From a virus, in IMG/VR virus record IMGVR_UViG_3300027418_000370: 64,000 nucleotides of DNA; one strand, written 5' to 3'. The position numbers and the translations under genes are program-made. Below, piece after piece: positions 14,874 through 58,259 of the stretch (position 1 is the stretch's first letter; every line of letters begins with the position of its first letter). Under the pieces are notes generated by a model, which saw only the letters and a program-made list of their open reading frames with translations, searched no databases and had not been told where the DNA came from.

Positions 14874-14884
14874 AATAAACTAAA

Positions 14885-21987: not shown

Positions 21988-22812
21988 ATGGCAAAACACG
22001 TTGTTGTTAGTCTTTCAGGAGGGATGGACTCCTCTACGTTACTTCTAAAAGCTCTTAAAGAGTTTGATACAGTAACAGCAATGTCTTTTGATTACGGTCA
22101 AAAGCACAGAGTAGAGCTTGAAAGAGCTCAAGAGTTGGTAAAGTACTTGAGTGATAACGGTCACTCTGTTAATTACCGAGTAATCAAACTAGACGGCTTG
22201 GTTGACCTGCTCAACTCGGCTCTAGTAACAGGTGGTGCTGAAGTACCTGAAGGTCATTACGCAGAAGAGAATATGAAAGCTACTGTTGTACCGAACCGAA
22301 ACAAAATCTTCAGTTCAATTTCTCAAGCTGTAGCACTTTCTATTGCAAATGAAACTCAGGAAGAAACTTCCATTGCGTTGGGCATTCATGCTGGTGATCA
22401 TGCGATCTATCCGGACTGCCGACAGGAATTTCGGGATGCAGATGACGCTGCTTTCCGCACTGGTAACTGGGACGCTGAGCGCGTATCTTATTGGACTCCT
22501 TATCTTGAAGGCGATAAGTTTACTATTCTAGAAGACGGACTGGTATTATGTGAGAAGCTAGGAATAGACTTTGATGAAGTTTATAAGCGTACTAACACCT
22601 CTTATAAGCCAATCAAGTACTATCACCGTCCAGAGACTAATGCCTGGACTTGGTACTCAGACTACAAATCAGCTTCTTCAGTAGAGCGTATTGAAGCTTT
22701 TATTAAGCTAGGACGACCTGATCCTGTAGCGTACGCTGATGAGACCGGCCCAGTGAGCTGGGAGGTAGCACGTGAGCATGTTGAAAAAGTTTTAGCAGCA
22801 CACGCAAATTAA
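21988..22812 (+). CDS. queC: 7-cyano-7-deazaguanine synthase
   Basis: SLSGGMDS, FDYGQKH, VPNRN, YPDCRQEF. Confidence 0.95.
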   Translation: MAKHVVVSLSGGMDSSTLLLKALKEFDTVTAMSFDYGQKHRVELERAQELVKYLSDNGHSVNYRVIKLDGLVDLLNSALVTGGAEVPEGHYAEENMKATVVPNRNKIFSSISQAVALSIANETQEETSIALGIHAGDHAIYPDCRQEFRDADDAAFRTGNWDAERVSYWTPYLEGDKFTILEDGLVLCEKLGIDFDEVYKRTNTSYKPIKYYHRPETNAWTWYSDYKSASSVERIEAFIKLGRPDPVAYADETGPVSWEVAREHVEKVLAAHAN

Positions 22813-23683: not shown

Positions 23684-23940
23684 AGTATTTGTATTTCTCA
23701 GCACCTTGGTGCGGTCCTTGTAGAATGTTAGGTCCAACAATGGAAAAAGTAGCAGCAGAAGGAATTGCTGTAGAAAAAATTAACATCGATACGGAAGAGC
23801 TCCTAACGATGGAATACACAGTCCGCAGTGTACCTACTGTAGTACTGATTGATGATTCTGGAAAAGAATTTGCTCGTACAGTTGGCGCTAAGCCATTAAG
23901 TCACTATATTGAACAATATAATAATTTTACAAATGTATAA
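23680..23940 (+). CDS. Thioredoxin
   Basis: WCGPC active site, SVPT cis-Pro motif. Confidence 0.9.
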   Translation: MKYLYFSAPWCGPCRMLGPTMEKVAAEGIAVEKINIDTEELLTMEYTVRSVPTVVLIDDSGKEFARTVGAKPLSHYIEQYNNFTNV

Positions 23941-24391
23941 GTCAAGAAAGAAGTTTGATGGCTTTAGTACTTGCTTCCGTCAATGGAAAGCGAATACTAC
24001 ACACTGTCAGTACCTACACGGCTATGATGTAGAGTTTGAAGTAACGTTTGAAGGAGATCTCGATCACCGTAACTGGGTATGGGACTTCGGAGGTATGAAG
24101 CGAGCTAAGAACCTGATCGACGGTATGCAACCTAAAGAATGGATGGAGCATATGTTCGATCATACTGTAGTTGTAGCAGAAGACGATCCTGAACTAGATA
24201 ACTTCAGAGATATGGCCGACAGAGGCGTTATTCAGTTACGAGTAGTAGAGGCAGTAGGTGCAGAGAAATTTGCTGAATTTCTTTACCACAAGCTAAATGA
24301 CTTCGTACAGACAGAGACAGACGGCCGAGTTAAGGTCATTAAAGTTAAATTTATGGAGAACCACAAAAACTCAGCAATCTATGGCGCTTAA
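23933..24391 (+). CDS. queD: 6-carboxy-5,6,7,8-tetrahydropterin synthase
   Basis: CQYLHGY, WVWDFG, FDHT, AE motifs; ATG at 23933. Confidence 0.9.
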   Translation: MYKSRKKFDGFSTCFRQWKANTTHCQYLHGYDVEFEVTFEGDLDHRNWVWDFGGMKRAKNLIDGMQPKEWMEHMFDHTVVVAEDDPELDNFRDMADRGVIQLRVVEAVGAEKFAEFLYHKLNDFVQTETDGRVKVIKVKFMENHKNSAIYGA

Positions 24392-25157
24392 GAGAATTGA
24401 AGATTATAATAAGGTACTGCCGATTGTAGAGCTTTACCGATGTGTACAATCAGAGGGTAGTCGTTTTGGACGTCCTACTATCGCTGTACGTACTACAGGA
24501 TGTACTCACCGCTGCTACTTCGGTGAAGGAGGTTGGTGTGATAGCTGGTATACCTCTATCCATCCAGAGAAAGGTGGTTATTCATTTAACGATATTATTA
24601 AGATTTACGATGAGAATCCTCACGTAAAGGAGATGATGCTAACAGGAGGTAGCCCAACAATGCACCCAGCCTTAGTAAATGAGATTACTCACTTTGCTAA
24701 AGAAAGAGGTATTATTGTTACTATTGAGACTGAAGGTTCTCACTTCCTTGAGACGGACTATCCTCTTGATCTTATCTCTCTATCTCCTAAGTTCTCTAAT
24801 AGCGTACCCGTAGTAGGAGCTGTTACACCTCAAGGCGCTATTGCAGATGAGAAGATGATTAAGCAACATAACAAGTTCCGTATCAACAAAGATGCTATCC
24901 GTCAGACTTTGGACTATCATACTGATTACCACTTTAAGCCGGTATGGGACGGTAGCGCAGCGAATCTAGTAGAGATTGAAGCATTTAGGGTTGAGATGAA
25001 TATTCCTAAAGACAAGACTTTTGTTATGCCTGCAGGTGATACTCGTGAGACTTTAATTGAAATGTACCCAATCGTATTTGAGATGTGTGCCGAGCACGGT
25101 TACAATATGACCGGACGTGATCACATCATTGCCTACGATACTAAGAGAGAAGTATAA
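24381..25157 (+). CDS. queE: 7-carboxy-7-deazaguanine synthase (radical SAM)
   Basis: VQSEG..GRP, GCTHRC-x7-CDS, LTGGSP, IETEG, SLSPK. Confidence 0.92.
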   Translation: MALKRIEDYNKVLPIVELYRCVQSEGSRFGRPTIAVRTTGCTHRCYFGEGGWCDSWYTSIHPEKGGYSFNDIIKIYDENPHVKEMMLTGGSPTMHPALVNEITHFAKERGIIVTIETEGSHFLETDYPLDLISLSPKFSNSVPVVGAVTPQGAIADEKMIKQHNKFRINKDAIRQTLDYHTDYHFKPVWDGSAANLVEIEAFRVEMNIPKDKTFVMPAGDTRETLIEMYPIVFEMCAEHGYNMTGRDHIIAYDTKREV

Positions 25158-25903: not shown

Positions 25904-26085
25904 GAAGAAAAGATATAATAACATTAAATGATGACTGGTATGAAGTTCAGAGAGTACTTAGAGAGGATCGTCAATGGGATGTTGAAATTCTTAAACAGTA
26001 CTGGTCTTGTACACATACCTTCCGTAAAGACGGTCTACTCTATTTTTGTAGAGAGATCCCAAAAATTGAATATCAACAAATATGA
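25900..26085 (+). CDS. Hypothetical protein
   Basis: ATGA-coupled small ORF. Confidence 0.5.
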   Translation: MRRKDIITLNDDWYEVQRVLREDRQWDVEILKQYWSCTHTFRKDGLLYFCREIPKIEYQQI

Positions 26086-26729
26086 AAGTAACCCTAAATC
26101 ATGTAACTCCGGACGCGGAGAATGCAATTGTAAAAATTGCTAGAGTATCCTCTAAACGTACCGACAAGGTAGAGAAGCCTGAAAGGCTACTACACTACCT
26201 TATCAAGCATAAGCATTGGTCTCCATTCGAGCACGGATATATGTCTGTAGAGATTGAGACTTCTAAAGCTATTGGTATTCAGTTAATTCGTCACCGCTCT
26301 TTTACCTACCAAGAGTTCTCACAACGTTACCAGGATGTAAGCTTAATTGACGGTATGTTTGAGAGTGTAGAGCTAAGAAAACAAGCTGAAGATAATAGAC
26401 AAAGCTCCACTGAAGTATTTAACCCAGACGTATTCTATGCCGGATACAGTACTGCAGCTTCAGCTCAGATCGGTAAACACTTTAGAGCTTCCCAAGATCT
26501 TTATAAGCGACTCCTTGATGAAGGTGTAGCAAGAGAAGTAGCTCGAATGGTATTGCCACTATCTACTAAAACTAAGATTCACATGACCGGTTCTATTCGT
26601 TCATGGATCCACTTCTTAGATCTCAGAGATGATGCTCATGCTCAGAAAGAGATTCAAGATGTAGCAAAAGAGATCAAGAAGATCTTTATCGAACAATTCC
26701 CAGTAATCTCAAAATCACTAAACTATTAA
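26082..26729 (+). CDS. thyX: Flavin-dependent thymidylate synthase
   Basis: HWSPFEH, QLIRHRSFTYQEFSQRY, HAQKEI. Confidence 0.95.
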   Translation: MKVTLNHVTPDAENAIVKIARVSSKRTDKVEKPERLLHYLIKHKHWSPFEHGYMSVEIETSKAIGIQLIRHRSFTYQEFSQRYQDVSLIDGMFESVELRKQAEDNRQSSTEVFNPDVFYAGYSTAASAQIGKHFRASQDLYKRLLDEGVAREVARMVLPLSTKTKIHMTGSIRSWIHFLDLRDDAHAQKEIQDVAKEIKKIFIEQFPVISKSLNY

Positions 26730-26731
26730 TT

Positions 26732-27355
26732 ATGAAAAAATGGCAGCACTTTACTTTCTTGTTATGGGTGGCATTCTCGGTTTACTCCTTTACAGCCTCT
26801 GGTCAGAAATCTTTAAGAGACAGCGTTGAATGGAACACTCCTTACTTTAGAATCTGGTATTCAGAACCTCTAGAGAATCCTTTATCAGTACGTTACGGTG
26901 TAGCTTGTCCTACAGGTACTGCTTCTAGATCAGGAATGGACTTCCACAAAGAAAAAGGAATTCATACTTCCGATAACGATGACTATGTAGCCAACGAATG
27001 GGACAAAGGTCATATGGCTCCTGCCGCAGACTTTAACTGTACCCGTGAAATGCTATTGGAGACATTTACATACGTTAACTCTTCCTTGCAGCACCAATCT
27101 CTCAATAGAGGTGTATGGAAGAAGCTAGAGACTCGAGAAAGAGAATTAGCATTAGGACACGAAGTACAAGTCTTTATCCGAGTAGAATTCTCAACTAATC
27201 CTGAAAGAGTACCTGGCGGTGCTGCTATCCCTTCCGGATACTATAAGGAACTAAAAGTTGCAAATCGCCGAGAATGTTACTATTTTAAGAACGAGAAACC
27301 TGTAACATCAGAGCTCTCAGATTATAAATGTCCTTGCAGAAATGCAATTAATTAG
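26732..27355 (+). CDS. Secreted DNA/RNA non-specific endonuclease (NucA/EndoG family)
   Basis: Signal peptide; DKGHMAPA, QHQSLNRGVWKKLE. Confidence 0.85.
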   Translation: MKKWQHFTFLLWVAFSVYSFTASGQKSLRDSVEWNTPYFRIWYSEPLENPLSVRYGVACPTGTASRSGMDFHKEKGIHTSDNDDYVANEWDKGHMAPAADFNCTREMLLETFTYVNSSLQHQSLNRGVWKKLETRERELALGHEVQVFIRVEFSTNPERVPGGAAIPSGYYKELKVANRRECYYFKNEKPVTSELSDYKCPCRNAIN

Positions 27356-27734
27356 TACGCATCCTATTAAGAAATCTGACCTCGGCTTTCATGCTAACCT
27401 CTTTGGAGGTAAGCTGTTAGCCTGGTTGGATGCTGCTGGAGCAGCTATGGCAATGGAGGTAGCTGATACTCCTAGAATGGTTACTATCAAGATAGACGAA
27501 TGTCTTTTTAAGAAACCAGCCAAAGAAGGTCAGTTGTTAAAAATTTATGGAAAGGTAGCAGAAGTTGGAAATACGTCTTTAACTCTCTATCTTGAAGCTA
27601 GAGCACATAACGTATACTCAGGAAGTCAGTCGGTAATACTCTCCACTAAGATTAAGTTTGTACGTATTGATGAAAATAATGAACCAATTCCAATCTCAGA
27701 TAGAATTAGATTAAAGTATGCAACAGTTAATTGA
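27342..27734 (+). CDS. Hotdog-fold acyl-CoA thioesterase
   Basis: NLFGGKLLAWLD..AA, FKKP, VGNTS, FVRID. Confidence 0.85.
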   Translation: MQLISTHPIKKSDLGFHANLFGGKLLAWLDAAGAAMAMEVADTPRMVTIKIDECLFKKPAKEGQLLKIYGKVAEVGNTSLTLYLEARAHNVYSGSQSVILSTKIKFVRIDENNEPIPISDRIRLKYATVN

Positions 27735-28224
27735 CGCAAAGGATATTGATATCCAAACTAAGATCATCGCTAAGAAGATCTCAGCAGAGCACAATGGAGA
27801 TAAAACTCCAATCGTTATGGTAGGGTTATTGAATGGAGCATTTATGTTCTATGCAGACCTAGTACGCAACATTACAGTAGACGTAGAATGTGATTTTATG
27901 AGAATAAGATCATACGTCAGTAAAAAGAAACAAGGTGATATTCAGATCACCAAAGACTTAGAGACGCCTGTTAAAGGAAAGCACGTCTATATCGTAGACG
28001 ACATTTACGATTCGGGTAATACAATGGATGCTGTGATTGAATACCTTCAGGTCAAACACCCAGCCTCGATTAATATTGTTACTCTACTGACTAGAGAAAC
28101 TTCTAGGATACCCCCAGTACCTTCCTATCATGCATTCACTATCAAGGATGAATGGGTAGTAGGCTTTGGAATGGATAACGATAAAGGTTATGCAAGAAAT
28201 TACAGAAGTGTGTTTGCACTCTGA
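27718..28224 (+). CDS. hpt: Hypoxanthine-guanine phosphoribosyltransferase-like protein
   Basis: GLLNGAFMFYADL, PRPP motif IVDDIYDSGNT, WVVGFGMD. Confidence 0.9.
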   Translation: MQQLIDAKDIDIQTKIIAKKISAEHNGDKTPIVMVGLLNGAFMFYADLVRNITVDVECDFMRIRSYVSKKKQGDIQITKDLETPVKGKHVYIVDDIYDSGNTMDAVIEYLQVKHPASINIVTLLTRETSRIPPVPSYHAFTIKDEWVVGFGMDNDKGYARNYRSVFAL

Positions 28225-28247
28225 AATAGTTTTCGTATATTAATAAG

Positions 28248-28277
28248 AGGTGTCGAAGCACCACCTAAAAAAACAAA
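28248..28277 (+). ncRNA. Candidate preQ1 class I riboswitch aptamer (copy 2) upstream of folE
   Basis: P1 AGGUG/CACCU, loop UCGAAGCAC, tail AAAAAAACAAA; lies between a promoter (28213-28241) and the folE ATG (28282). Confidence 0.7.
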
Positions 28278-28281
28278 TTAT

Positions 28282-28992
28282 ATGGCAGATAAAAAACGTT
28301 ATGATGTAGAACTCGCTCAAGCCGGGTTCGCTAATGGTGTCTCTTCTCAACTGGCTGAGAAGTTTAAAGTTCATTCTATGAACTCTATGCACTTAACAGA
28401 TCAAGAGAAGCATACTATTATTGAGAATGCTGCAAAGGCATTCGGAGAATTCCTAGATGCTCTAGGATGTGACTGGCGTGATGACCCTAACTCATCTGAT
28501 ACTCCTCGTCGAGTAGCTAAGGCTTATGTAAACGACTTATGGGCAGGACGATTCAATCCTATGCCTGAGATCACAGCCTTCCCTGCTGATGGTTATGATG
28601 GTATTGTATTTGAGGGTAATATTCCTTTGACCTCGATGTGTTCGCATCACCACCAGACTATTCAAGGTCGAGTTCATATTGCTTACATTCCAGGTCCTGG
28701 AGGTAAGGTAATCGGTCTATCTAAGCTCAATCGTATTGTAGAGCATTTCGGACGTAGAGGTGCTATTCAAGAGCAGCTTACTGTTGCTATTCATAATGCA
28801 GTTCATACTGTTTGTGAAGGTAATGTAGGTGTAGCAGTTATGGTAGAAGCTACTCACAATTGTGTATCATGCCGCGGTACTAAACACGCTGGTGCGTCAA
28901 TGAAGACTTCTAAGCTATCAGGTAGCTTTATGTACGAAGACTCAGCACGAGCAGAATTTTATGAATTTGTTAAAGGTTACGCATGCAAATGA
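28282..28992 (+). CDS. folE: GTP cyclohydrolase I
   Basis: DTPRRVAK, SMCSHH, IGLSKLNRIV, QEQLT, HNCVSCRG. Confidence 0.95.
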   Translation: MADKKRYDVELAQAGFANGVSSQLAEKFKVHSMNSMHLTDQEKHTIIENAAKAFGEFLDALGCDWRDDPNSSDTPRRVAKAYVNDLWAGRFNPMPEITAFPADGYDGIVFEGNIPLTSMCSHHHQTIQGRVHIAYIPGPGGKVIGLSKLNRIVEHFGRRGAIQEQLTVAIHNAVHTVCEGNVGVAVMVEATHNCVSCRGTKHAGASMKTSKLSGSFMYEDSARAEFYEFVKGYACK

Positions 28993-29495
28993 AACGAGCA
29001 AAAAGTGTCCCATTTATCGACGAAGTAGAGATCTTCAACGATACGTTCGGTAAGCCGAACAATTACACTCCTATTATTCCTAATGATAAGAAACTTACTA
29101 ACTTCGTAGTAGATTTTATTAAAGAAGAGACTGACGAACTAGCACACGCTATTGAAGAGAAAGATATTGTAGAAGTACTAGATGCTATCTGCGATCTACT
29201 TTACGTAGCTATTGGAAATGCTACCATGGTGTTTGGATTGAAGAATAAGATCGTACCAGCTTACCGAGAGGTACAGGCATCGAATATGTCTAAGAGCTGT
29301 GCGACTGTAGAAGAAGCAGAAGAGACTATTGCTCTCCGTTCTCAACAGCACGGCGAGTGTTACTTCCGTAAGGTGGGAAACCGTTATGTTGTTTATCGCA
29401 AAGCGGACGATAAGGTTATGAAATCTATTAACTACTTCGCTCCTAATCTTGAGCAGTTCTTTACTCCAGAAGAAATCGAAAACGCTAAGCAATGA
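28983..29495 (+). CDS. MazG-like/PRA-PH nucleoside triphosphate pyrophosphohydrolase
   Basis: IKEETDEL, EVLDAICDLLYV, VQASNMSK. Confidence 0.85.
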   Translation: MQMKRAKSVPFIDEVEIFNDTFGKPNNYTPIIPNDKKLTNFVVDFIKEETDELAHAIEEKDIVEVLDAICDLLYVAIGNATMVFGLKNKIVPAYREVQASNMSKSCATVEEAEETIALRSQQHGECYFRKVGNRYVVYRKADDKVMKSINYFAPNLEQFFTPEEIENAKQ

Positions 29496-29689
29496 GTCCA
29501 AAAGAACTGGTAGAACAAAATAGTATCTTCTTAGAAGACCTACAACGCTGGGTTGTACCTTTAGAAGTAGTAGAGGAAGCCTTGCAGATCAAGAGCGCTA
29601 AAGAGCTTGAAGATAATTTAGGTAAACTTCAAGATAGTATGTTAGAATTAAACAAGTTATTTAACGATTTAGGAAACGCCAATGGTTAA
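29492..29689 (+). CDS. Hypothetical protein
   Basis: Small coupled ORF. Confidence 0.5.
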   Translation: MSPKELVEQNSIFLEDLQRWVVPLEVVEEALQIKSAKELEDNLGKLQDSMLELNKLFNDLGNANG

Positions 29690-30509
29690 GATTGCACACG
29701 AGAGTCCTATTGCTAGCTTTGACACTATTCAGCAGTATACGGATTATGATTACGCTTTAGTACATCTCTTTGAAGAGAACGAAACTTATTTAGATAAGTT
29801 TGTAGAAGCACGAGATAAAGGACGAGAGATTATTCTCGATAACTCTATCTTTGAATTAGGAAAAGCTTTTGATTCAGAACGCTTTGCTTTCTGGATTGAT
29901 TATTTAAAGCCTACCTGGTACATCGTACCTGATGCATTAGAGAATGTAAAGCGTACTTGTGCTAATATGGCTGAGTGGAACTTTAAGTATGCAGATCATC
30001 TAGCAGCACCTAGTAAAAAGATTGGAGTACTACAGGGAAAGACTTACTCTGAGCTTATCAATTGCTATGACTACATGATTAATATAGCAAAGGTAGATAT
30101 GGTGGCTATCTCTTTCGATTACAGTTATTACGAACAGCTCGTACCACACCCTAACAAGTATGTTAGCTGGATGCTAGGCAGAGTTGTGCTCTTAGGTAAG
30201 ATGTTACGTGATGGAGTAATCAACCCAGATATCCCTCACCACCTACTAGGCTGTGGACTTCCTCAAGAGTTTGCTTTCTATAAAGACTACGATTGGATCT
30301 ACTCACTAGATACTTCTAACCCAGTAGTACACGGTTTGTTGGGAATCGAGTATAAAGATCAAGGGTTGTGGGATAAGGCATCAATCAAGTTATTTGAGAT
30401 GATTAATATGACTCCTACCTCTGAGCAGGTTACTTCAGCAGTTTATAATGTTCAACGCTTTAGATGGTTCGCACATGGTAGCAACTCGTCCGTGGATAGC
30501 ATTCTTTAG
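29682..30509 (+). CDS. dpdA: DpdA-like 7-deazaguanine transglycosylase (TGT fold, probably DpdA3-type)
   Basis: TGT-barrel motifs ILDNSIFE, IVPD, GVLQG, HHLLGCG, SLDTS; no Zn-binding CxCxxC of tRNA TGTs; sits among que genes. Confidence 0.75.
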   Translation: MVKIAHESPIASFDTIQQYTDYDYALVHLFEENETYLDKFVEARDKGREIILDNSIFELGKAFDSERFAFWIDYLKPTWYIVPDALENVKRTCANMAEWNFKYADHLAAPSKKIGVLQGKTYSELINCYDYMINIAKVDMVAISFDYSYYEQLVPHPNKYVSWMLGRVVLLGKMLRDGVINPDIPHHLLGCGLPQEFAFYKDYDWIYSLDTSNPVVHGLLGIEYKDQGLWDKASIKLFEMINMTPTSEQVTSAVYNVQRFRWFAHGSNSSVDSIL

Positions 30510-31035
30510 TCAGACTGGATCTGAGATTGTTCAGGTTAGTAAGCAGTTAGGTCGCTGGCCTGACCTTATTATTACTAATATCAGGCCTTCTCATTTACGT
30601 ACTATACATCCTGAGATTCCTACAGACCTATTAAAGTATACTCAGAATAGACCTGAGGAGCATGAGCTTGTATGGCTGATGAGTGCAATAAGTGATAACC
30701 CTGTTGTAACTTTACACGGATGGTTAAGAGTAATGCCTGCTTCTATCTGTAATCGCTATGAAATCTATAACGGACATCCAGGATTGATTACTAAATATCC
30801 AGACCTAAAAGGAAAAGATCCTCAATATAGAGCCTGGGAAGGTAACTATAAGACTGCTGGCTGTGTTATTCACAAAGTAACTGCCGGAGTAGATGAAGGA
30901 GAAGTTCTAGTGGAGCGAGAAAGTATACATAAGATGTTGCCTAAGAACGATATTTTTCGTATCTTACATGACACATCAGTAGAGATGTGGATAGAATTTT
31001 TACATAATAAACTATGGTTAGACGAATTGCATTAG
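30475..31035 (+). CDS. PurN-like formyltransferase (DpdN, putative dPreQ1 formyltransferase)
   Basis: FFSQTGS, LHGWLRVM, NGHPG, GCVIHKVTAGVDEG formyltransferase motifs; overlaps the dpdA-like gene. Confidence 0.8.
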   Translation: MVATRPWIAFFSQTGSEIVQVSKQLGRWPDLIITNIRPSHLRTIHPEIPTDLLKYTQNRPEEHELVWLMSAISDNPVVTLHGWLRVMPASICNRYEIYNGHPGLITKYPDLKGKDPQYRAWEGNYKTAGCVIHKVTAGVDEGEVLVERESIHKMLPKNDIFRILHDTSVEMWIEFLHNKLWLDELH

Positions 31036-31532
31036 TAGGAGCTAGTAGTACTGGTAAGACTACTGTGTATGAGTTATTGAAAGCTAAACTACCTAAGTAT
31101 GAGTTTATTAACGAAAGTACTCGTACGGTAGCTAAGTTTGGCTTTCCTATTAACGAAGCAGGTACTACTGAGACTCAGTTAGCTATTTCTTCTTTTCACT
31201 TAGAGGCTTTGCTTAAGCCTCATAGTTTGATTCTAGATCGTTGTTATCTAGACTTAGTTGTATACTCTAAGCATATGCCTGCTTTATCTTCTCAAGGCTT
31301 AGACTTTATTGAAGATACTTGGACTAGAGTGCAGGATGAGTATACGCACTATATTTATTTCCCTATTGAATTCGATGCTGTGGATGATGGTCAGCGCAGT
31401 GTAGATGAAGCTTGGAGAAAGATTATTGATGAAGAGTTTAAGTATCAACTCGATTTAACTGACCGTCATTATTTAACTGTTACTGGCTCACCATTGCAGC
31501 GAGTAGATCAAATTTTAAAATACATAAAGTAA
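31014..31532 (+). CDS. P-loop nucleoside/nucleotide kinase-like protein (AAA_28/NadR type)
   Basis: IALVGASSTGKTT, LILDRCYLD, DDGQR. Confidence 0.75.
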   Translation: MVRRIALVGASSTGKTTVYELLKAKLPKYEFINESTRTVAKFGFPINEAGTTETQLAISSFHLEALLKPHSLILDRCYLDLVVYSKHMPALSSQGLDFIEDTWTRVQDEYTHYIYFPIEFDAVDDGQRSVDEAWRKIIDEEFKYQLDLTDRHYLTVTGSPLQRVDQILKYIK

Positions 31533-32447
31533 ATGGAAGAAGTAAAGAACTACAATGCAGTCGTTGAGATTGCTGGTAAACACCTCGGTAAGGTAGGTGG
31601 AGAAGGTTACTCAGATCAGTACAATGCTGAGTTGCTAGTAGCAGTACCTCGTTATTTAAACCGAGAAGCTTACGGAATTGAGGAGAGTAATCTTCCATTC
31701 GTAGGAGTAGATGCTTGGAACGCTTATGAAGTTTCAGCTATTACTAAAAAAGGTCAGCCTGTAGCAGGTATGTTAAAGATTGTATGCCCAGCTAATACAG
31801 AGTTTCACGTTGAGTCAAAGTCTATCAAATTATACTTGAACTCTTTGAATATGACTCCGATGGGTCAGACAGCTAAGGAGTGTATCAAGGAGATTGAAAC
31901 AACAGTAGCTAAAGACCTAACTGACCTACTAGGAGGAAATGTAACCTGTACCTTCTTCGGCAATACATACACTCCAGAGTTTGAGTTTGATGGCTTTACA
32001 GACTTAGGTGCAACAGTAAACCTTGACAACATTGAGTTTACAGCCTTTAAGTCTGATGCAGGTCAGCTTGAGATTGGCGGCAATCTTCCAATGTCTGTTA
32101 CAACTAAAGTAAGTTCTAACTTGCTACGTAGTAACTGCCGAGTAACTAACCAGCCTGACTGGGGTGATATCTACATCCATATGCAAGGTCATAACTCAAT
32201 TAAGCTTGAGTCACTAGCCAAGTATATCGTTAGTCACCGTACAGTATCTCACTTCCATGAAGAGATCTGTGAGATGGTATTTACTCACCTTCAGCAAGCC
32301 TATCAACCTGAGAAGCTTATGGTAGCATGTTTATATACACGTCGTGGTGGATTGGATATTAATCCTATTCGAGCTACACATAAAGATATGATCCCAGGAT
32401 GGTTTACTGATTCGGGTAAACGAATGAGAAAAACTTTACGTCAATAA
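31533..32447 (+). CDS. queF: NADPH-dependent preQ0 reductase (bimodular type)
   Basis: VESKSIKLYLNS, RSNCRVTNQPDWG, FHEEIC, YTRRGGLDINP. Confidence 0.95.
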   Translation: MEEVKNYNAVVEIAGKHLGKVGGEGYSDQYNAELLVAVPRYLNREAYGIEESNLPFVGVDAWNAYEVSAITKKGQPVAGMLKIVCPANTEFHVESKSIKLYLNSLNMTPMGQTAKECIKEIETTVAKDLTDLLGGNVTCTFFGNTYTPEFEFDGFTDLGATVNLDNIEFTAFKSDAGQLEIGGNLPMSVTTKVSSNLLRSNCRVTNQPDWGDIYIHMQGHNSIKLESLAKYIVSHRTVSHFHEEICEMVFTHLQQAYQPEKLMVACLYTRRGGLDINPIRATHKDMIPGWFTDSGKRMRKTLRQ

Positions 32448-32450
32448 GTT

Positions 32451-32473
32451 GGAGCCTACGGGCTCCTTTCTTA
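32451..32473 (+). terminator. Terminator after queF, overlapping the next promoter
   Basis: ggagcc-tacg-ggctcc followed by tttctt. Confidence 0.65.
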
Positions 32474-32502
32474 TCTTTATAGAGTATTAAAAAGTAACGG
32501 TT

Positions 32503-33027
32503 ATGAGTAAGACTGAAGTAGTAGAGCTGATTGAGACGCTTAATAAATGTAGAGAGCTAGCATCAAAGCTTAAACTTGACCCTGATCAGCTAAGTGGCCT
32601 GTACGGTGAAGCAGTAGCCTTGTTAGTTATAAAAGAAATTATTGGAGATAAAGAATACACACCAGCACCACCTCGTGAAAATAATATCGACGGTACAGGT
32701 AAGCTTGGAAGGTATTCTACAAAGTATCTTAGCCCTAAGATGCACGTACCTAAATCTTCAGAACGAAATCTTGTAACTCTACATTCAGACTTAGATTTTG
32801 ATTTTCTACTTATCGTCTGTGATACAGGAGAAGTATTTAACGTACCTCGTCAGGTAATAGTTAACCAAAGCGCATTTAATCTACACGAACGCCGTGAGCG
32901 TAAAATGATTAATTGGATGACGATGGGTAGTCGCAAGAAGCGTGCAATTCGTCCGACTAATGATAACTGGAATACTCTGGTAGAAAACTACCTAGTTTGT
33001 AATCTAAATGAAATTTCTTATCTTTAA
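32503..33027 (+). CDS. Hypothetical protein, possibly PD-(D/E)XK nuclease fold
   Basis: GLYGE..., NNIDG...YSTKY, DFDFLLIV pattern; weak. Confidence 0.4.
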   Translation: MSKTEVVELIETLNKCRELASKLKLDPDQLSGLYGEAVALLVIKEIIGDKEYTPAPPRENNIDGTGKLGRYSTKYLSPKMHVPKSSERNLVTLHSDLDFDFLLIVCDTGEVFNVPRQVIVNQSAFNLHERRERKMINWMTMGSRKKRAIRPTNDNWNTLVENYLVCNLNEISYL

Positions 33028-33030
33028 TAT

Positions 33031-35373
33031 ATGTCGATAGAAAAAAAGTATTATACGGTTACAGATAAGGAAACTGTTAACCTACTCATCCAGCACATTA
33101 ACGAATCAAACGTTATTGCGTACGATACCGAGACCGACTCCCTTAACATGCGTAAGGGTAAAGTAGTCGGCTTCTCCGTCTCAGGTGATATTGGTATTGG
33201 TTTCTATATGCCAACTATGGCTTGGAATCACGCTACTGAGACTCTAGATGAACTTCAGATCGAAGGCATCGGTTGTCATACCTTAGCTAAGAAGATCTTA
33301 AGTATGCTAGTCGGTAAGAAGCTTGTGATGCACAACGCATCGTTTGACTGCCGATTTACTAAGAACTTCTACGGTGTTAACTTACTAGATAGTCTCTGGG
33401 TTGATACTGCTCTGCTAGTACATACCGTCCAAGAAGAAGGAGCAGGTATGGGAGTATTCGGTCTTAAGCCTCTAGCTATTTCTATTCAAGAGCACATCGG
33501 TCTAGATGTAGAGAAGGCTGCTAACGAAGAGCAGATCGAACTGAAAGAGTCTATCAAACGTAACGGAGGCTCAGTAACTAAGGAAAGCTTTGAGATCTAC
33601 AAAGCAGACATGGACGTACTATCAAAGTATGCCGCTGCCGATACTGACTTAACTCTCCGAGTATGTACTTACTTTATTCAGAAACTTAAAGAAGAGAACT
33701 TAGAGCAGTTCTTCTTTGAAGAGGAAGTTATGCCTCTGTACCGTGAAGTAACTATTCCTATGGAAGAGATGGGAGTAGATTTAGACTTAGAGCTACTAGA
33801 AGAGACTAAGAAAGAGATTATTGAAGATCTTCAGAAGAATAAAAAGATTGTACTTGACTCTATTCTAGCTCTACCAGCCGGTAAAGAATGGGTTGTAGAT
33901 ACTGCTCTAAAAGAGTTCCCACCTTCTCATAAAGGAACATGGGCACAATACTTAGCTATGCGTTACTCTTTACCTCTGCCTAAATCTGAGAAGACCGGTA
34001 AGTACTCTATTACTCAAAAGACTGTAGGAGAGCTAGAAGATTCTCCTGCTAAAGAGTACCTCTTAACTGGAAACTTAGATGTGCTGAATGAAATGGAGGT
34101 ACTTAAAATCTCTATGGCATTATGGAAAGAGAAGAATGATGGGGAGTATATCAACATTCAATCTAAGAAACACTTAGGTGAACTTGTATTTGACTATATG
34201 GGTATTAAACCTCTTGTATCAGGAGCTAATACTAAGTCCGGTCGTGATAAGTTTGACATGGATATGATTGAAGAGCTCTCTAAAGACTACGAATGGGCTG
34301 AGAATCTTCGTATCTATAACAAGCTACTTAAGATTAAGTCTACTTATATCGATCGCTTTGTAGATAATCACGAAGACGGACGTTACTACTTCTACTTTAA
34401 ACAGAACGGTACTGTATCAGGCCGTTATGGTTCAGATGCTCAGCAACTACCTAAGCCTAAAGAGGAAGGAGAAGATGCTCCTATCATCGTCAAGTATACT
34501 AATATCGTCCGTGCTTTCTTAACCTCAGGACCAGGACGTAAAATTATCGATGCTGACTACGAGTCATTGGAACCTCACTGCTTTGCTTCTGTATCAGGAG
34601 ACATTAACCTTCAGGAGATCTTTAACAACGGATGGGACTTCTACTCTACTGTTGCTATCAGAACTGAGAAGCTAGATGAGCAGCGAGATAAGTACCCTGA
34701 CGGAGTATCAGCTGATAAGAGAGCTCCTAACTACCTTAAGAAGTTAGACCCTGTTAAGCGTAACCAAGCTAAGGCTTACTCCCTCGGTATTGCATATGGT
34801 ATGGAAGCTTACGCTCTAGGAATGACACTAGGCATCTCTCAGAAAGAAGCCGAAGTACTTGTAGATGGTTACCTAAATGGATTTCCTCAACTTAAGCAGT
34901 GGCGTATTAACTCTCGTAAGCAGGTTAAAGAGCATGGCTTTATTAAGAATAAGGTAGGCCGTATCCGTCACCTACCTAAAGTTAAAAAGATGTACGATAC
35001 TTTCGGAGACCAGATCATGGACTGGAAGTTCCGGAAAGACCTTTCAGAACGTTATGGCAAGGATCAAGTACTACAATGGTACCGTGACTACCGAAACGGA
35101 CTGAATAACTGTTTGAACTACCAACTGCAGAGCCTTGCAGCGGCTGTCGTAAACCGAGCGGCAGTACAGATCAATCGCAAGCTGAAAGAGCTTGGGATCG
35201 ACGGCCGTGTTCAAGCACAGGTACATGACCAGTTGATCATTAACGTACCAGAAGACCAGGCAGAGTTTGTAGCTCCTATCGTAAAAGAGATTATGGAGAG
35301 TACTACCAAGCTTGAAGGAGTAACTCTAAAAGCACCTCCTGAGATTTCTTATAACTGGAGAGACGGCCACTAA
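33031..35373 (+). CDS. polA: Family A DNA polymerase with 3'-5' exonuclease
   Basis: Exo I YDTETD, Exo II HNASFD, Exo III YAAAD; motif A DADYESLE, motif B RNQAKAYSLGIAYG, motif C QVHDQ. Confidence 0.95.
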   Translation: MSIEKKYYTVTDKETVNLLIQHINESNVIAYDTETDSLNMRKGKVVGFSVSGDIGIGFYMPTMAWNHATETLDELQIEGIGCHTLAKKILSMLVGKKLVMHNASFDCRFTKNFYGVNLLDSLWVDTALLVHTVQEEGAGMGVFGLKPLAISIQEHIGLDVEKAANEEQIELKESIKRNGGSVTKESFEIYKADMDVLSKYAAADTDLTLRVCTYFIQKLKEENLEQFFFEEEVMPLYREVTIPMEEMGVDLDLELLEETKKEIIEDLQKNKKIVLDSILALPAGKEWVVDTALKEFPPSHKGTWAQYLAMRYSLPLPKSEKTGKYSITQKTVGELEDSPAKEYLLTGNLDVLNEMEVLKISMALWKEKNDGEYINIQSKKHLGELVFDYMGIKPLVSGANTKSGRDKFDMDMIEELSKDYEWAENLRIYNKLLKIKSTYIDRFVDNHEDGRYYFYFKQNGTVSGRYGSDAQQLPKPKEEGEDAPIIVKYTNIVRAFLTSGPGRKIIDADYESLEPHCFASVSGDINLQEIFNNGWDFYSTVAIRTEKLDEQRDKYPDGVSADKRAPNYLKKLDPVKRNQAKAYSLGIAYGMEAYALGMTLGISQKEAEVLVDGYLNGFPQLKQWRINSRKQVKEHGFIKNKVGRIRHLPKVKKMYDTFGDQIMDWKFRKDLSERYGKDQVLQWYRDYRNGLNNCLNYQLQSLAAAVVNRAAVQINRKLKELGIDGRVQAQVHDQLIINVPEDQAEFVAPIVKEIMESTTKLEGVTLKAPPEISYNWRDGH

Positions 35374-39338: not shown

Positions 39339-39424
39339 GCTACTGTGGTGAAATAGGTAGACACGAGGGACTTAAAATCCCTTGGCCAGTGATGGTCGTG
39401 CCGGTTCGATTCCGGCCAGTAGTA
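39339..39424 (+). tRNA. tRNA-Leu(TAA)
   Basis: Acceptor gctactg/cagtagt, anticodon arm aggga-cttaaaa-tccct, long variable arm, ggttcgattcc. Confidence 0.92.
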
Positions 39425-39442
39425 CACGGAAACCCATATACG

Positions 39443-39453
39443 GTTCTTTGACA
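39443..39453 (+). promoter_or_regulatory. boxA-like antitermination site
   Basis: GTTCTTTGACA in the first tRNA spacer. Confidence 0.5.
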
Positions 39454-39470
39454 TGTTGGATAGATAGAAT

Positions 39471-39552
39471 GCGGATGTGGTGTAATTGGTAGCCACGCCA
39501 GACTTAGGATCTGGTGCTTAATCGCGTGGGGGTTCGAGTCCCTTCATCCGCA
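39471..39552 (+). tRNA. tRNA-Leu(TAG)
   Basis: Acceptor gcggatg/catccgc, anticodon arm ccaga-cttagga-tctgg, ggttcgagtcc. Confidence 0.92.
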
Positions 39553-39669
39553 CATAATGAGAGGAGGAAAAGGTAAAATCCAAAGGTACGGTCGACGGGT
39601 CGTTTAAAACCTGAGGTACGGACTCTGATGCTGTAAGCGCGCTAAAGGAGTGAAGCCTCTCTATAATAT

Positions 39670-39743
39670 GGTCCGATAGCTCAGCTGGATAGAGCAACAG
39701 CCTTCTAAGCTGTCGGTCGAAGGTTCGAATCCTTCTCGGATCA
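39670..39743 (+). tRNA. tRNA-Arg(TCT)
   Basis: ggtccga/tcggatc, acagc-cttctaa-gctgt, ggttcgaatcc. Confidence 0.93.
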
Positions 39744-39835
39744 CTACGCAGTCAGATGCATCTGGTTTCTCTATTCCATTTAAAGATAGAGTGGAGCTAC
39801 AGTGGCAGGTTATGGTTGTCCTCTAACAACCAGCT

Positions 39836-39908
39836 CGGGATGTGGCGCAAGTGGTAGCGCACCTGGTTTGGGACCAGGGGGTTGGAGGTTCGAGTCCTGT
39901 CATCCCGA
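39836..39908 (+). tRNA. tRNA-Pro(TGG)
   Basis: cgggatg/catcccg, cctgg-tttggga-ccagg, ggttcgagtcc. Confidence 0.92.
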
Positions 39909-40568: not shown

Positions 40569-41264
40569 ATGAAGTTATTTGTACCTTTAATCTGTTATAA
40601 TCATACTGCCAATACAGAGTGGATGATGTCCACTATGAAGTTATTAAACTTTGTCAAGGATCAAAGTATACCTTGCACCTTCTATCCAATATTCTTTGAG
40701 AGTTTAGTTTCACGAGCACGCAATGCAGCAGTAGCACACTTCCTTCAAGATGAGGAAGCAACTCATTTATTGTTTATAGATTCCGATATCATCTTCGAAC
40801 CTGAGGATGTTGTTAAGCTTATTCAAGCTAAGAAAGAAGTAGTAGGGGGTATGTACCCTAAGAAGTATATTAAGTGGGATCATATTAAAAAGTATCCTGA
40901 AGCTCAAAGAGTAGACTTTCCAGTTGGTACTTCTACAATCAACTCAGAAGGTTTTATTGAGACTAAATACGCTCCTACAGGCTTCTTGATGATAGCTAAG
41001 ACAGCAATCAATAGACTAATTAAAAGCAATCCCCACCTCAAATATAGAAACGATATCGATGGATATGGAACAGGAGATACCTTCTATGATCTATTCCATG
41101 TAGGTATTAAAGGCGGTATCTATGAGAGTGAAGACTGGGGATTTAGTTCTCTATGGAGAGAAGAAGGTGAAGCAGTTTATATCCATCCTGAAGTAAACTT
41201 AAAGCACGTCGGATGGCATGAGTACGAAGGCAATTTAAAGAAATATATTTTAGAAAATCGATGA
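40569..41264 (+). CDS. GT-A fold glycosyltransferase-like protein
   Basis: ESLVSRARN, HLLFIDSDI (DxD), YPKK, SEDWGF. Confidence 0.75.
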   Translation: MKLFVPLICYNHTANTEWMMSTMKLLNFVKDQSIPCTFYPIFFESLVSRARNAAVAHFLQDEEATHLLFIDSDIIFEPEDVVKLIQAKKEVVGGMYPKKYIKWDHIKKYPEAQRVDFPVGTSTINSEGFIETKYAPTGFLMIAKTAINRLIKSNPHLKYRNDIDGYGTGDTFYDLFHVGIKGGIYESEDWGFSSLWREEGEAVYIHPEVNLKHVGWHEYEGNLKKYILENR

Positions 41265-41926
41265 AGAAAGTTATATTTGCTCTCCCAGGTAGAGAGTTTT
41301 CCGGAAAGTTCTTACAGTCCTGGACTGAGTTAGTGTATGCCTGCCTACAGAATGGCATCCAACCTATTATGTCTCAGCACTACTCACCTCTATTGTACTA
41401 CGTACGCAATATGTGCTTAGGAGGAGATAACTTAAGAGGAGTAGATCAAAAGCCTTTTGGCGGTCAATTTGACTACGATTACATTATGTGGATTGATTCC
41501 GATATCGTCTTTACTCCTGAGCACTTCTTTAAGCTTTTAAATCACGATAAAGATATCGTATCAGGTCTTTACATGATGAACGATAATGTTCACTATGCAA
41601 CAGTTGAGGATTGGGATGATGAGTTCTTTTTGAAGAACGGACACTTTCAGTTTCTTAATCGAGAGATGGTCCAAGCTAAAGAAGGAAAGCTCTTTACAGC
41701 CGACTACACAGGCTTTGGATGGGTGCTTACTAAGAAGGGAGTATTTGAATCTCTAGAGTATCCTTGGTTCCAACCTATGTGGACTGAATATAATATTGAC
41801 GGTAAACTCGTTAGAGACTTTACAATGGAAGATGTTGCCTTCTGTAAAATGATTAAGGAGAAAGGTTTTGATGTATGGATTGATCCGACTATCATTGTAG
41901 GTCACGAAAAGATGATGGTACTCTAA
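41261..41926 (+). CDS. GT-A fold glycosyltransferase-like protein
   Basis: YIMWIDSDIVF, TGFGWVL, EDVAFC, VGHEK. Confidence 0.75.
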   Translation: MKKVIFALPGREFSGKFLQSWTELVYACLQNGIQPIMSQHYSPLLYYVRNMCLGGDNLRGVDQKPFGGQFDYDYIMWIDSDIVFTPEHFFKLLNHDKDIVSGLYMMNDNVHYATVEDWDDEFFLKNGHFQFLNREMVQAKEGKLFTADYTGFGWVLTKKGVFESLEYPWFQPMWTEYNIDGKLVRDFTMEDVAFCKMIKEKGFDVWIDPTIIVGHEKMMVL

Positions 41927-44560: not shown

Positions 44561-44584
44561 GTTTCGGGAAATATATTTGAAGAG

Positions 44585-44609
44585 AGGGTGGCTTCGGTCA
44601 CCCTTTTTT
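44585..44609 (+). terminator. Intrinsic terminator after the TonB receptor
   Basis: agggtggc-ttcg-gtcaccct followed by a T-tract. Confidence 0.8.
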
Positions 44610-44623
44610 CGTATATTAAGGTC

Positions 44624-45136
44624 ATGGAAAGTGTTATGAAGTACGACGAAAAGGATCAGTGTCCTTATCAACCTATCCACACCGAAGAGTGGTTAGAGGC
44701 TTTTTTTAAGAAAAACTATTTTAAGATGCCCTATAACCGCTTTATGTGGTGGAAGAGCTATACTCCTAAGACTCGTCCATTGACCGGTAAGGCTTCTCCT
44801 CTAGAGCGAGTTAAGAATGGAGACTTTGATCCTGCTCCTTATAAGTTTGAAGCTCAGTTGGTAGAGCATCGTCTACGCCGTAAGTGGTTTGAGCTTCAAG
44901 GAGACTGGCAGAAGTTCTTAGAGGTGTGTGCTGTAGATCTAGCTCGACGTAAACGTCTCTTAGAAGATCATGAGAAGGAAGAGAATCGCCGGTTAGAAGG
45001 CTTCTTTAAGTACGTAGGACGTATCTTCGGGATGAACCGGGATGAGATTATGCTTCACTTAGAGAGCTTTGCCGGTGAGACTGTACTTGAATTTTATAAC
45101 TTTCTCCATGAGAAATACGATGATAAACCGTATTAA
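44624..45136 (+). CDS. Hypothetical protein
   Basis: Likely ATG start after the ttcgtatatt promoter element. Confidence 0.55.
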   Translation: MESVMKYDEKDQCPYQPIHTEEWLEAFFKKNYFKMPYNRFMWWKSYTPKTRPLTGKASPLERVKNGDFDPAPYKFEAQLVEHRLRRKWFELQGDWQKFLEVCAVDLARRKRLLEDHEKEENRRLEGFFKYVGRIFGMNRDEIMLHLESFAGETVLEFYNFLHEKYDDKPY

Positions 45137-45184
45137 AACATAATCAGTATATATTTATATAAAAGAACACTAAATTAAATTATC

Positions 45185-45547
45185 ATGTTAAAACGTTTTT
45201 GGAATTGGTTACTAGGTAAAACTACCATTGATGAAAAAGTAATCGAAGTTGTTGAAGAAGTAAAAGAAGACATCCAAGTTATTCGCGAAAGAGCTAAAAG
45301 AGTAGCTGAAGAGACTAGAGATGTACTTGAAGCTGCTAAAGAGGTTGCTAAGCAATCTAAAGATGTTGTTAGTGCTGCTAAAGGCGCTCCTAGAAAAGGA
45401 CGTAAGCCTGCTAATAGAAAGCCAGCTAACAAACCAGCTACCGCTCCTGCTCCTAAAGTAGAAGCTCCTAAAGTTGAAGTAGTAGAAGCTGCTAAGAAAC
45501 CTACCCCACGTCGTAGAAACAATCGTAAGCCAGCAGCTAAGAAATGA
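45185..45547 (+). CDS. Lys/Ala/Pro-rich basic protein with N-terminal amphipathic segment
   Basis: RKPANRKPANKP and APKVE repeats; histone-H1-like tail. Confidence 0.55.
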   Translation: MLKRFWNWLLGKTTIDEKVIEVVEEVKEDIQVIRERAKRVAEETRDVLEAAKEVAKQSKDVVSAAKGAPRKGRKPANRKPANKPATAPAPKVEAPKVEVVEAAKKPTPRRRNNRKPAAKK

Positions 45548-45786
45548 ACCAACCTAACGTAAACGTAAGTTTAGATCAAACATCACCAGTATCGTGTGAT
45601 GAATGCGGACACTTGTATTTTGAGCAAGCGCTCCATATCCGCAAAGTATCAGGCCTACTCACAGGTACAGGACAAACTTCGTACCTTCCTATCCCAGTCT
45701 TTGCATGTACCGCTTGCGGTCATATCAATACAGAATTTTTACCTAAAGAAGTTAAAGACCTGGGAAATGAACAAACCGCTGATTAG
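45544..45786 (+). CDS. Zinc-ribbon protein
   Basis: CDEC...CTACGH. Confidence 0.6.
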   Translation: MNQPNVNVSLDQTSPVSCDECGHLYFEQALHIRKVSGLLTGTGQTSYLPIPVFACTACGHINTEFLPKEVKDLGNEQTAD

Positions 45787-45888
45787 TATTCACTTCAACG
45801 AGCCTGTTTGGATGTATGATGGTATTCAAGAATCCATCTACAACGAGCACTCGGAAGAAGAGGAGTAAGTTTAAAGAAAGAATAAATT

Positions 45889-45921
45889 AGGGAAAGGGAC
45901 TACGGTCCCTATTCCTGTTTC
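45889..45921 (+). terminator. Putative terminator
   Basis: aggga-c-tacg-g-tccct core with an extended ggaa/ttcc stem and T-rich tail. Confidence 0.55.
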
Positions 45922-45983
45922 TATTTATTAAAGAATTGTTACAGGTAATTGTTTTCGTTAGTTCTATTAAACTATGACGACTT

Positions 45984-58258: not shown

Positions 58259-58259
58259 A

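Follow-up and report, generated by a model that had tools for sequence, protein, structure and literature searches.

Results

Organization of the deazaguanine gene cluster

The window analyzed in this study is a 64-kb stretch (64,000 nucleotides) of a 124.7-kb single-contig virus record in IMG/VR (IMGVR_UViG_3300027418_000370; completeness estimate 76%), and it carries a gene cluster predicted to replace guanine in the phage DNA with a 7-deazaguanine derivative. Gene identities were checked with Pfam, PHROG and NCBIfam scans of the window proteins, which confirmed hpt, folE, a MazG-like gene, dpdA3, dpdN, a kinase gene, queF and polA on the plus strand at the positions of the initial annotation. 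The cluster itself is a further member of the published DpdA3/DpdN system (Cui/Hutinet 2023).

All the cluster features described here are on the plus strand. The hpt gene (27718-28224) encodes an Hpt-type hypoxanthine/guanine phosphoribosyltransferase (PRT; Pribosyltran E 2e-23; TIGR01203) and is separated by a 57-nt gap from folE for GTP cyclohydrolase I (28282-28992; Pfam E 1.6e-43). From folE through queF the genes overlap or abut. This string encodes, after FolE, an all-alpha NTP pyrophosphohydrolase of the MazG/HisE type (28983-29495; PRA-PH E 6e-12; phrog_671), a small acidic protein, o65 (29492-29689; isoelectric point (pI) 4.3), the minimal TGT-fold guanine transglycosylase DpdA3 (29682-30509; no Pfam match), the PurN-derived formyltransferase DpdN (30448-31035; best profile match PurN, E 5e-14), an AAA_28 nucleoside/nucleotide kinase (31014-31532; Pfam E 6e-15 and predicted structure) and QueF for conversion of preQ0 to preQ1 (31533-32447; Pfam QueF_N and QueF). 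It ends at a terminator-like hairpin (32451-32466), which is followed by an orphan gene, o174 (32503-33027; no Pfam, PHROG or NCBIfam match), and by polA for a PolA with 3'-5' exonuclease (33031-35373; Pfam). The two small open reading frames (ORFs) o65 and o174 were not mentioned in the initial annotation. The slot of o65 is taken by an ORF of 60-76 aa across immuto-like loci. On the other hand, o174 was dropped as a conserved member of the module, since no homolog precedes PolA in any related locus; this slot between queF and polA is variable, to the point that contigs whose PolA is 95% identical differ in the small gene it holds.

The leader between hpt and folE (28244-28283) looks like a preQ1-I aptamer (AGAGGUG...CACC, then an A-rich tail). 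If it is real, free preQ1 would feed back on folE, but a preQ1-I riboswitch before folE was not established by the Rfam PreQ1 match (9.8 bits, E 9.2, against a gathering score of 39). A sigma-70 promoter scan, which is uninformative for the type of host concerned, gave fewer sites than shuffled sequence.

The gene order is the same as in Flavobacterium phage immuto, with protein identities of 58-76%, and also recurs in dozens of IMG/VR contigs. Shared with immuto are a PRT, FolE, the NTP pyrophosphohydrolase, the small ORF, DpdA, the formyltransferase, a kinase labeled there as 'thymidylate kinase', QueF, PolA and GroES/GroEL. The differences are that the PRT of immuto is a 131-aa Gpt-type enzyme instead of the Hpt type and that immuto has ThyA where the present phage has ThyX. 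In immuto DNA, fdPreQ1 replaces all of the guanine (345,000 per 10^6 nt, without a dG peak), and DpdA3 and DpdN were defined in this phage, while the PRT, hydrolase and kinase were given no role (PMC10516641). Judging from its genes, by which alone this uncultured phage is known, the region is predicted to be the core of an immuto-type fdPreQ1 module, fdPreQ1 having been measured for immuto.

A nucleotide kinase follows DpdA3 in almost all loci

The AAA_28 protein is, by its predicted structure, a small-molecule kinase and not a DNA-handling ATPase like DpdB, and its substrate is probably a nucleoside or nucleotide. The AlphaFold2 (AF2) model (predicted local distance difference test (pLDDT) 91) was closest in Foldseek to NadR-RNK (template modeling (TM) score 0.74-0.78), human dGK (0.77), YorR, dAK, dNK and TMPK, and its P-loop, DR and DDGxRS (lid) motifs are invariant. 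The thymidylate kinase profile PF02223 matched nothing anywhere in the record at E <= 0.01, and AAA_28 alone matched the kinase.

We counted kinases within five genes of DpdA3 in the 74 IMG/VR loci that extend at least 2 kb downstream of it. A nucleotide kinase follows DpdA3 in 73 of the 74, namely the AAA_28 type in 66 and a T7 gp1.7-type DUF3310 protein in seven, with both in none and neither in one. The DUF3310 proteins (84-122 aa) are placed after DpdA3-DpdN in loci without AAA_28. DUF3310 is the C-terminal domain of T7 gp1.7, as PF11753 matches T7 at 8529-8717 inside gene 1.7 (8166-8756) with E 3e-25, and the slot proteins were connected with gp1.7 by jackhmmer (E 4e-23). T7 gp1.7 phosphorylates dGMP and dTMP (PMC11897194, citing Tran 2012).

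In several immuto-like lineages, staphylococcal-nuclease homologs or a non-specific endonuclease are encoded between the kinase and queF (e.g. L036:7878-8243). Moreover, a HAD-family phosphatase (Acid_phosphat_B/HAD_PNKP; L126:8070-8525) follows the AAA_28 kinase in a DpdA3 cluster of the non-DpdN type, a hint that some lineages may include a step at the nucleoside level.

Co-occurrence across DpdA3 lineages and comparison with DpdA1

We collected 95 IMG/VR loci with DpdA3 relatives, in 92 of which DpdA3 was called and used for clustering, and genes were typed against the window proteins. Dereplication at 75% DpdA3 identity, with at least 3 kb required on either side, left 22 lineages. This was the co-occurrence check proposed with the initial annotation. 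Within 6 kb of DpdA3, QueF was found in 22/22 lineages, DpdN in 21/22, the AAA_28 kinase and FolE in 20/22 each, QueC in 15/22, a purine PRT in 10/22, the window-type MazG and a dUTPase/DCD-like gene in 8/22 each, and PolA in 6/22. It is evident that the conservation of the kinase equals that of the pathway enzymes. A Pfam tally restricted to three genes on either side of DpdA3 gave AAA_28 in 18/22, PRA-PH in 8/22, Pribosyltran in 6/22 and dNK in 3/22.

The same neighborhood was compared in seven DpdA1 lineages (9g type, about 25% modification), where FolE, QueD, QueC and PolA were among the three genes to either side of DpdA1, but no kinase, NTP pyrophosphatase or PRT was. The difference in kinase between DpdA3 and DpdA1 is significant (Fisher p = 2e-4), though the lineages are related and their independence is thus overstated.

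Enzymes of five dNTP-hydrolase folds are encoded beside DpdA3 or inside its cluster: HisE/MazG, the unrelated MazG of phiST, HD, NUDIX and dUTPase/DCD-like. The gene order in Campylobacter phage CP220 is an HD-AAA_33 fusion, DpdA3 and the AAA_28 kinase, and that in Cellulophaga phage phiST is FolE, MazG, DpdL, an AAA_18 kinase, DpdA3 and DnaE. The AAA_18 kinase of phiST, which adjoins DpdA3 upstream, is not homologous to the window kinase. Chryseobacterium phage MA9V-3 also has an AAA_18 kinase gene directly upstream of DpdA3, with a DCD-like gene nearby. In one metagenomic contig the genes for NUDIX, DpdA3 and AAA_28 all overlap, and another has the order QueD, PRT, dUTPase, FolE ... QueE, DpdA3, QueC, AAA_28, HAD phosphatase. 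Like immuto, phiST and CP220 show full guanine replacement (dDG 100% and dADG 100%, respectively) (PMC10516641).

One protein family, about 145 aa long and without a Pfam match, has the motif GxxGE...D...DVK (PD-(D/E)xK-like; Atlas leads NOV_C and PDDEXK_14). Its genes (L064:5570-6004 and 17 further loci; L010:13056-13574) immediately precede that of DpdA3 in non-immuto lineages and that of PolA in some immuto-like ones. The family may act as a nuclease on unmodified DNA.

DpdA3 and DpdN

DpdA3 of the window is 65% identical to immuto DpdA over 97% of its length. Its AF2 model (pLDDT 95) matched TGT in Foldseek (E 4e-8, TM 0.61-0.65) and is a minimal barrel of 275 aa. D53, D84 and D210 are invariant among 25 diverse members and were mapped onto D102, D156 and D280 of TGT by motif, not by superposition. 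The C-terminus lies about 65 residues past the putative nucleophile, and the C-terminal zinc site (CxCxxC...H) is absent, with no invariant Cys in the alignment of the 25 members. The family is large, comprising 1,486 clusters at 50% identity. Overall charge was discarded as a proxy of DNA binding because DpdA1 (pI 5.1-6.6) is equally acidic as DpdA3 (median pI 5.5).

Natural fusions were found in metagenomic proteins: DpdA3::DpdN in P0216 and P0225, DpdA3::QueF in P0271 and P0273, and DpdA3::DUF3310 of the T7 gp1.7 type in P0256. An intein/LAGLIDADG-bearing DpdA3 also occurs in the set of P0216, P0225, P0271, P0273, P0272 and P0256. On the other hand, no P-loop kinase::DpdA3 fusion was found among the representatives or longer forms examined. 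The fusions to DpdN and QueF place the preQ1 supply and the formylation beside the DpdA3 step and not beside the PRT.

DpdN keeps the Asn-His-Asp triad (N108, H110 and D149 invariant) of a formyltransferase that is PurN-like but falls below the PurN equivalog TIGR00639 (45.8 bits, cutoff 150.1). Its loop matching the phosphate loop of PurN for glycinamide ribonucleotide (GAR) reads S-Q-T-G-x-E, with an invariant Glu at the position of PurN Asn13. The idea in the initial annotation that a nucleotide made by HPRT is formylated found no support here, as the natural fusions of DpdN with DpdA3 in some phages tie formylation to the DpdA3 step and not to an HPRT product.

The MazG-like hydrolase and PolA

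The metal motif EExxE...ExxD of the MazG/HisE-like enzyme (E48 E49 E52 ... E64 D67 D71) is conserved in at least 95% of 34 homologs, and the enzyme is not homologous to the MazG of phiST. Clues to its specificity were sought in solved structures, which gave no sequence match, and in the ESM Atlas, which returned only generic viral PRA-PH clusters.

PolA is away from the main replication module, as had been annotated: the module (10.3-16.6 kb), which encodes RecA-like, FEN, DnaB and NrdAB proteins, lies about 16 kb upstream. However, the notion of a dedicated extra polymerase did not hold. PolA was the sole family A or B polymerase found in searches of the whole record (about 76% complete), with no PolB; it sits behind the terminator-like hairpin in a transcription unit separate from folE-to-queF; and DpdA1 of phage 9g directly adjoins the clamp and polymerase, so that a polymerase next to DpdA is not specific to complete replacement. 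Thus, PolA is probably the replicase and not a DpoZ-like second, specialized enzyme. Within the replication module, a 446-aa ORF (7620-8960 of the window) gave a sub-threshold DNA_pol_A match (E 9e-4, 18.7 bits).

The phosphoribosyltransferase

The PRT of the window passes the Hpt equivalog TIGR01203 (153.6 bits, cutoff 150) and can be aligned over its full length with solved structures of Hpt (E 7e-31). Its motif for phosphoribosyl pyrophosphate (PRPP) is DDIYDSGNT, compared with EDIIDSGNT of the E. coli-type Hpt, and includes the Asp that contacts purine N7. The Hpt type is found in the window group and two distant lineages, while a short Gpt-type PRT, closest to Pyrococcus purine PRT 1vdm, occupies the same slot before folE in immuto, L010-L014, L015/L016 and L103. 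The PRT of phiST is encoded elsewhere in its genome, and CP220 and MA9V-3 have none.

The occurrence of two unrelated guanine-type PRTs in one slot points to guanine itself as the substrate. The synthesis of a preQ1 nucleotide by HPRT, which the initial annotation had considered, is therefore not supported, given a canonical Hpt, its replacement by Gpt in relatives, its absence from CP220 and the occurrence of a PRT within 6 kb in only 10/22 lineages. The salvage of guanine freed by DpdA, which had been offered there as the alternative, fits better, because the Hpt equivalog cutoff is passed and CP220 replaces 100% of its guanine without a PRT. As far as the sequence tells, Hpt most likely recycles the guanine released by DpdA3 to GMP and GTP for FolE, and this salvage holds under a pre- or post-replicative model alike.

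Other genes in the window

Upstream of the cluster, also on the plus strand, are further parts of the pathway: QueC (preQ0 synthase; 21988-22812; Pfam QueC E 2.6e-38), QueD (CPH4 synthase; 23909-24391; Pfam PTPS E 6e-16; 59% identity to immuto QueD) and the radical SAM enzyme QueE (CDG synthase; 24297-25157; Pfam Radical_SAM; 67% identity to immuto QueE). They are followed by genes for ThyX, a non-specific DNA/RNA endonuclease and a hotdog thioesterase (26082-27734, plus strand; Pfam Thy1, Endonuclease_NS and 4HBT), which form one overlapping string with hpt as the last gene. The genes for NrdB and NrdA, a class I ribonucleotide reductase, are at 13890-16600 on the plus strand.

Downstream of the cluster, four tRNA genes (39339-39908) are located after Hsp20, GroES and GroEL. 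Two unusual auxiliary genes that point to a Bacteroidota host are located in the region 42023-47906: one for a TonB-dependent receptor (Plug plus beta-barrel), the other for a protein with cohesin and type IX secretion system (T9SS) C-terminal sorting domains. A run of glycosyltransferase genes (55551-61923) includes GT1 twice and a GT10 fucosyltransferase-like gene, and two further weak glycosyltransferase-like matches are at 40569-41926.

Discussion

We propose, with a probability of about 0.5, that the guanine replacement in this phage runs on free deoxynucleotides before replication, and that DpdA3 would be the first TGT-family enzyme working on a free deoxynucleotide or deoxynucleoside, making up a pre-replicative pathway with a dGTP hydrolase and a dedicated kinase. 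In this scheme, the MazG/HisE-type enzyme is proposed to cleave dGTP to dGMP, which would remove the competitor and supply the acceptor. DpdA3 would exchange the guanine for preQ1 on the free deoxynucleotide (or deoxynucleoside), and DpdN, encoded next to DpdA3, would formylate the aminomethyl group. The AAA_28 kinase would phosphorylate the modified nucleotide, which host kinases may refuse, host nucleoside diphosphate kinase (NDK) would produce the modified triphosphate, and the single PolA of the phage would incorporate it. The released guanine would be turned into GMP by Hpt and get back to GTP and FolE. We infer all of these substrates, above all the free nucleotide of DpdA3.

What the sequences show is the identity of the enzymes, with their folds and intact motifs, the close packing of their genes in an operon, and that a kinase and a dNTP hydrolase are conserved companions of DpdA3. 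A hydrolase of a canonical dNTP runs counter to a scheme that builds guanine-containing DNA first, and this favors a route at the nucleotide level. A kinase for a nucleotide refractory to host enzymes would be indispensable, which matches the conservation of the kinase, whereas a GMP kinase from the phage would be redundant with an essential enzyme of the host. Moreover, kinases and hydrolases near DpdA3 are replaced by non-orthologous ones and are absent near DpdA1, which suggests a signature of the nucleotide-level route. DpdA3 phages replace 100% of their guanine and DpdA3 alone was inactive in E. coli in the authors' attempts (PMC10516641), and these facts also suggest modification at the nucleotide level. 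The ADG nucleoside in the cytoplasm of CP220-infected cells, a result known second-hand (via PMC10516641), favors this too. Modified dGTP had been put forward in 2019 as a route in Campylobacter phages (PMC6884629), an idea dropped in 2023 when DpdA3 was found. No publication that we found connects DpdA3 with a kinase or hydrolase or tests a nucleotide substrate. What is new here is the mutually exclusive AAA_28/gp1.7-type kinase slot, the Hpt/Gpt displacement and the contrast with DpdA1. Taken together, the suggestion of the initial annotation that MazG and the kinase serve a pre-replicative route stood in that both accompany DpdA3 across deep lineages, while its parts on HPRT and a dedicated PolA did not.

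Several points weigh against our proposal. The authors who defined DpdA3 concluded that the insertion is post-replicative (PMC10516641), and a paper of December 2025 still cites 7-deazaguanine as an example of modification at the nucleic-acid level (PMC12783734). Bacterial DpdA binds and modifies dsDNA, and every characterized TGT/DpdA enzyme works on a polynucleotide (PMC10164549). The kinase family is also found in DpdA-less Streptomyces and Rhodococcus phages, inside replication modules, and the AAA_28 protein, as the sole dNMP-kinase candidate in the record, could be a general dNMP/thymidylate kinase. At least one DpdA3 context (L128) shows no kinase nearby. Nucleoside kinases are among the nearest structural relatives of the kinase, so that the intermediate may be a nucleoside or a nucleotide. 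The specificities proposed for the MazG-like enzyme and the kinase are putative, and the compared loci belong to related phages, whose lineage counts are not fully independent.

A plausible alternative, to which we give a lower probability, is the published post-replicative exchange: replication would use dGTP, after which DpdA3 would exchange every guanine in the DNA for preQ1 or formyl-preQ1. DpdN would formylate the base either free or once in DNA, guanine would be recycled by Hpt and the kinase through GMP and GDP to GTP for FolE, and the MazG-like enzyme would serve general house-cleaning or pool-shaping. This is consistent with the polymer substrates of all known relatives, with the TGT fold and its three invariant catalytic-type Asp residues, with guanine as the common substrate of Hpt and Gpt in the slot before folE, and with DpdA being the single gene common to all 7-deazaguanine phages (PMC10516641). 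The polymerase adjoining DpdA1 in phage 9g likewise fits, as DpdA enzymes may work at the fork. However, dGTP cleavage would be counter-productive if guanine-containing DNA is needed first, yet hydrolases of five folds recur near DpdA3. A GMP kinase should be dispensable in hosts with essential Gmk, yet the kinase is conserved in 20/22 lineages and the PRT in 10/22. The partial-modification DpdA1 clusters do without kinase, NTP pyrophosphatase and PRT, and the inactivity of DpdA3 alone in E. coli is also hard to accommodate.

The two other possibilities concern the PRT and the kinase. PRTs using 7-deazaguanine bases exist in the biosynthesis of toyocamycin and tubercidin. In the first of these possibilities, the phage PRT might join preQ1 or preQ0 with PRPP to a ribonucleotide, which would be formylated by DpdN, phosphorylated by the kinase, reduced by NrdAB and then polymerized, with DpdA3 merely clearing residual guanine. 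NrdAB, which no other reading needs, is encoded by the phage, roughly half of the lineages, one of them non-DpdN, have a purine PRT within or close to the cluster, and DpdN derives from PurN, an enzyme on a phosphoribosyl amine. Even so, we regard this as unlikely, as the window PRT scores above the cutoff for cellular Hpt and keeps the N7-contacting Asp, a PRT is within 6 kb in less than half of the lineages, the fusion partners DpdN and QueF are joined to DpdA3 and not to the PRT, the Asn of the PurN phosphate loop is an invariant Glu in DpdN, and CP220 completes its replacement without a PRT (PMC10516641). More improbable still is that the kinase is an ATPase partner needed by DpdA3 on DNA. 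Bacterial DpdA does require ATP hydrolysis by DpdB (PMC10164549), and a P-loop gene is tightly linked to dpdA3. The model, however, resembles small-molecule nucleoside/nucleotide kinases with DR and LID-Arg motifs, three members of the family match Pfam dNK, and the slot alternatively holds the T7 gp1.7-type nucleotide kinase domain, which has no P-loop. We thus rejected the DpdB-like partner on fold and motifs.

The kinase and the dNTP hydrolase are likely the parts missing from the account of how DpdA3 phages achieve 100% replacement of guanine. If our proposal is true, it would overturn the published post-replicative model for all the 7-deazaguanine phages with complete replacement, add a new class of reaction to the TGT superfamily and explain the failed reconstitution with DpdA3 alone. 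It would also open an enzymatic route to C7-functionalized 7-deaza-dGTPs and fully substituted DNA. Should the modification not run at the nucleotide level, a loop that recycles guanine would still be defined by the kinase, PRT and FolE.

Finally, the cluster can be compared with known systems. The pre-replicative set of phage T4 consists of the dCTPase gp56, the dCMP hydroxymethylase gp42 and the dNMP kinase gp1. Z-genome phages have the pre-replicative set of MazZ, PurZ, DatZ and DpoZ (PMC8342488, PMC12783734). The present cluster resembles these in having a putative dNTP pyrophosphatase, a candidate dNMP base-changing enzyme, a kinase and a phage polymerase, with the substrates deduced here from the genes, and one feature of this type, a nucleotide kinase of the phage encoded close to the base-modifying enzyme, is present in 73/74 loci. 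It differs in that the base changer would be a TGT-family transglycosylase, which is without precedent on free nucleotides, and that PolA is probably the general replicase of the phage.

Within the TGT/DpdA superfamily, bacterial DpdA/DpdB and DpdA1 of phage 9g share with DpdA3 the catalytic Asp pattern and a base from the Que pathway, but DpdA3 lacks the Cys/His zinc motif and the long Ins8. The bacterial DpdA/DpdB and phage DpdA1 systems modify 0.1-30% of guanine, in contrast to 100% for DpdA3. As in the window, DpdA3 of phiST and CP220 is flanked by a nucleotide hydrolase and a small kinase of the P-loop type, though their hydrolases (MazG subtype and HD) and the AAA_18 kinase of phiST are not homologous to the window enzymes, their clusters are without DpdN or QueF, and phiST has DnaE instead of PolA. 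The likeness to T7 gp1.7 is that its DUF3310 domain fills the kinase slot in the seven AAA_28-less loci; the slot proteins cover only the C-terminal domain of gp1.7, and the window has the AAA_28 type instead.

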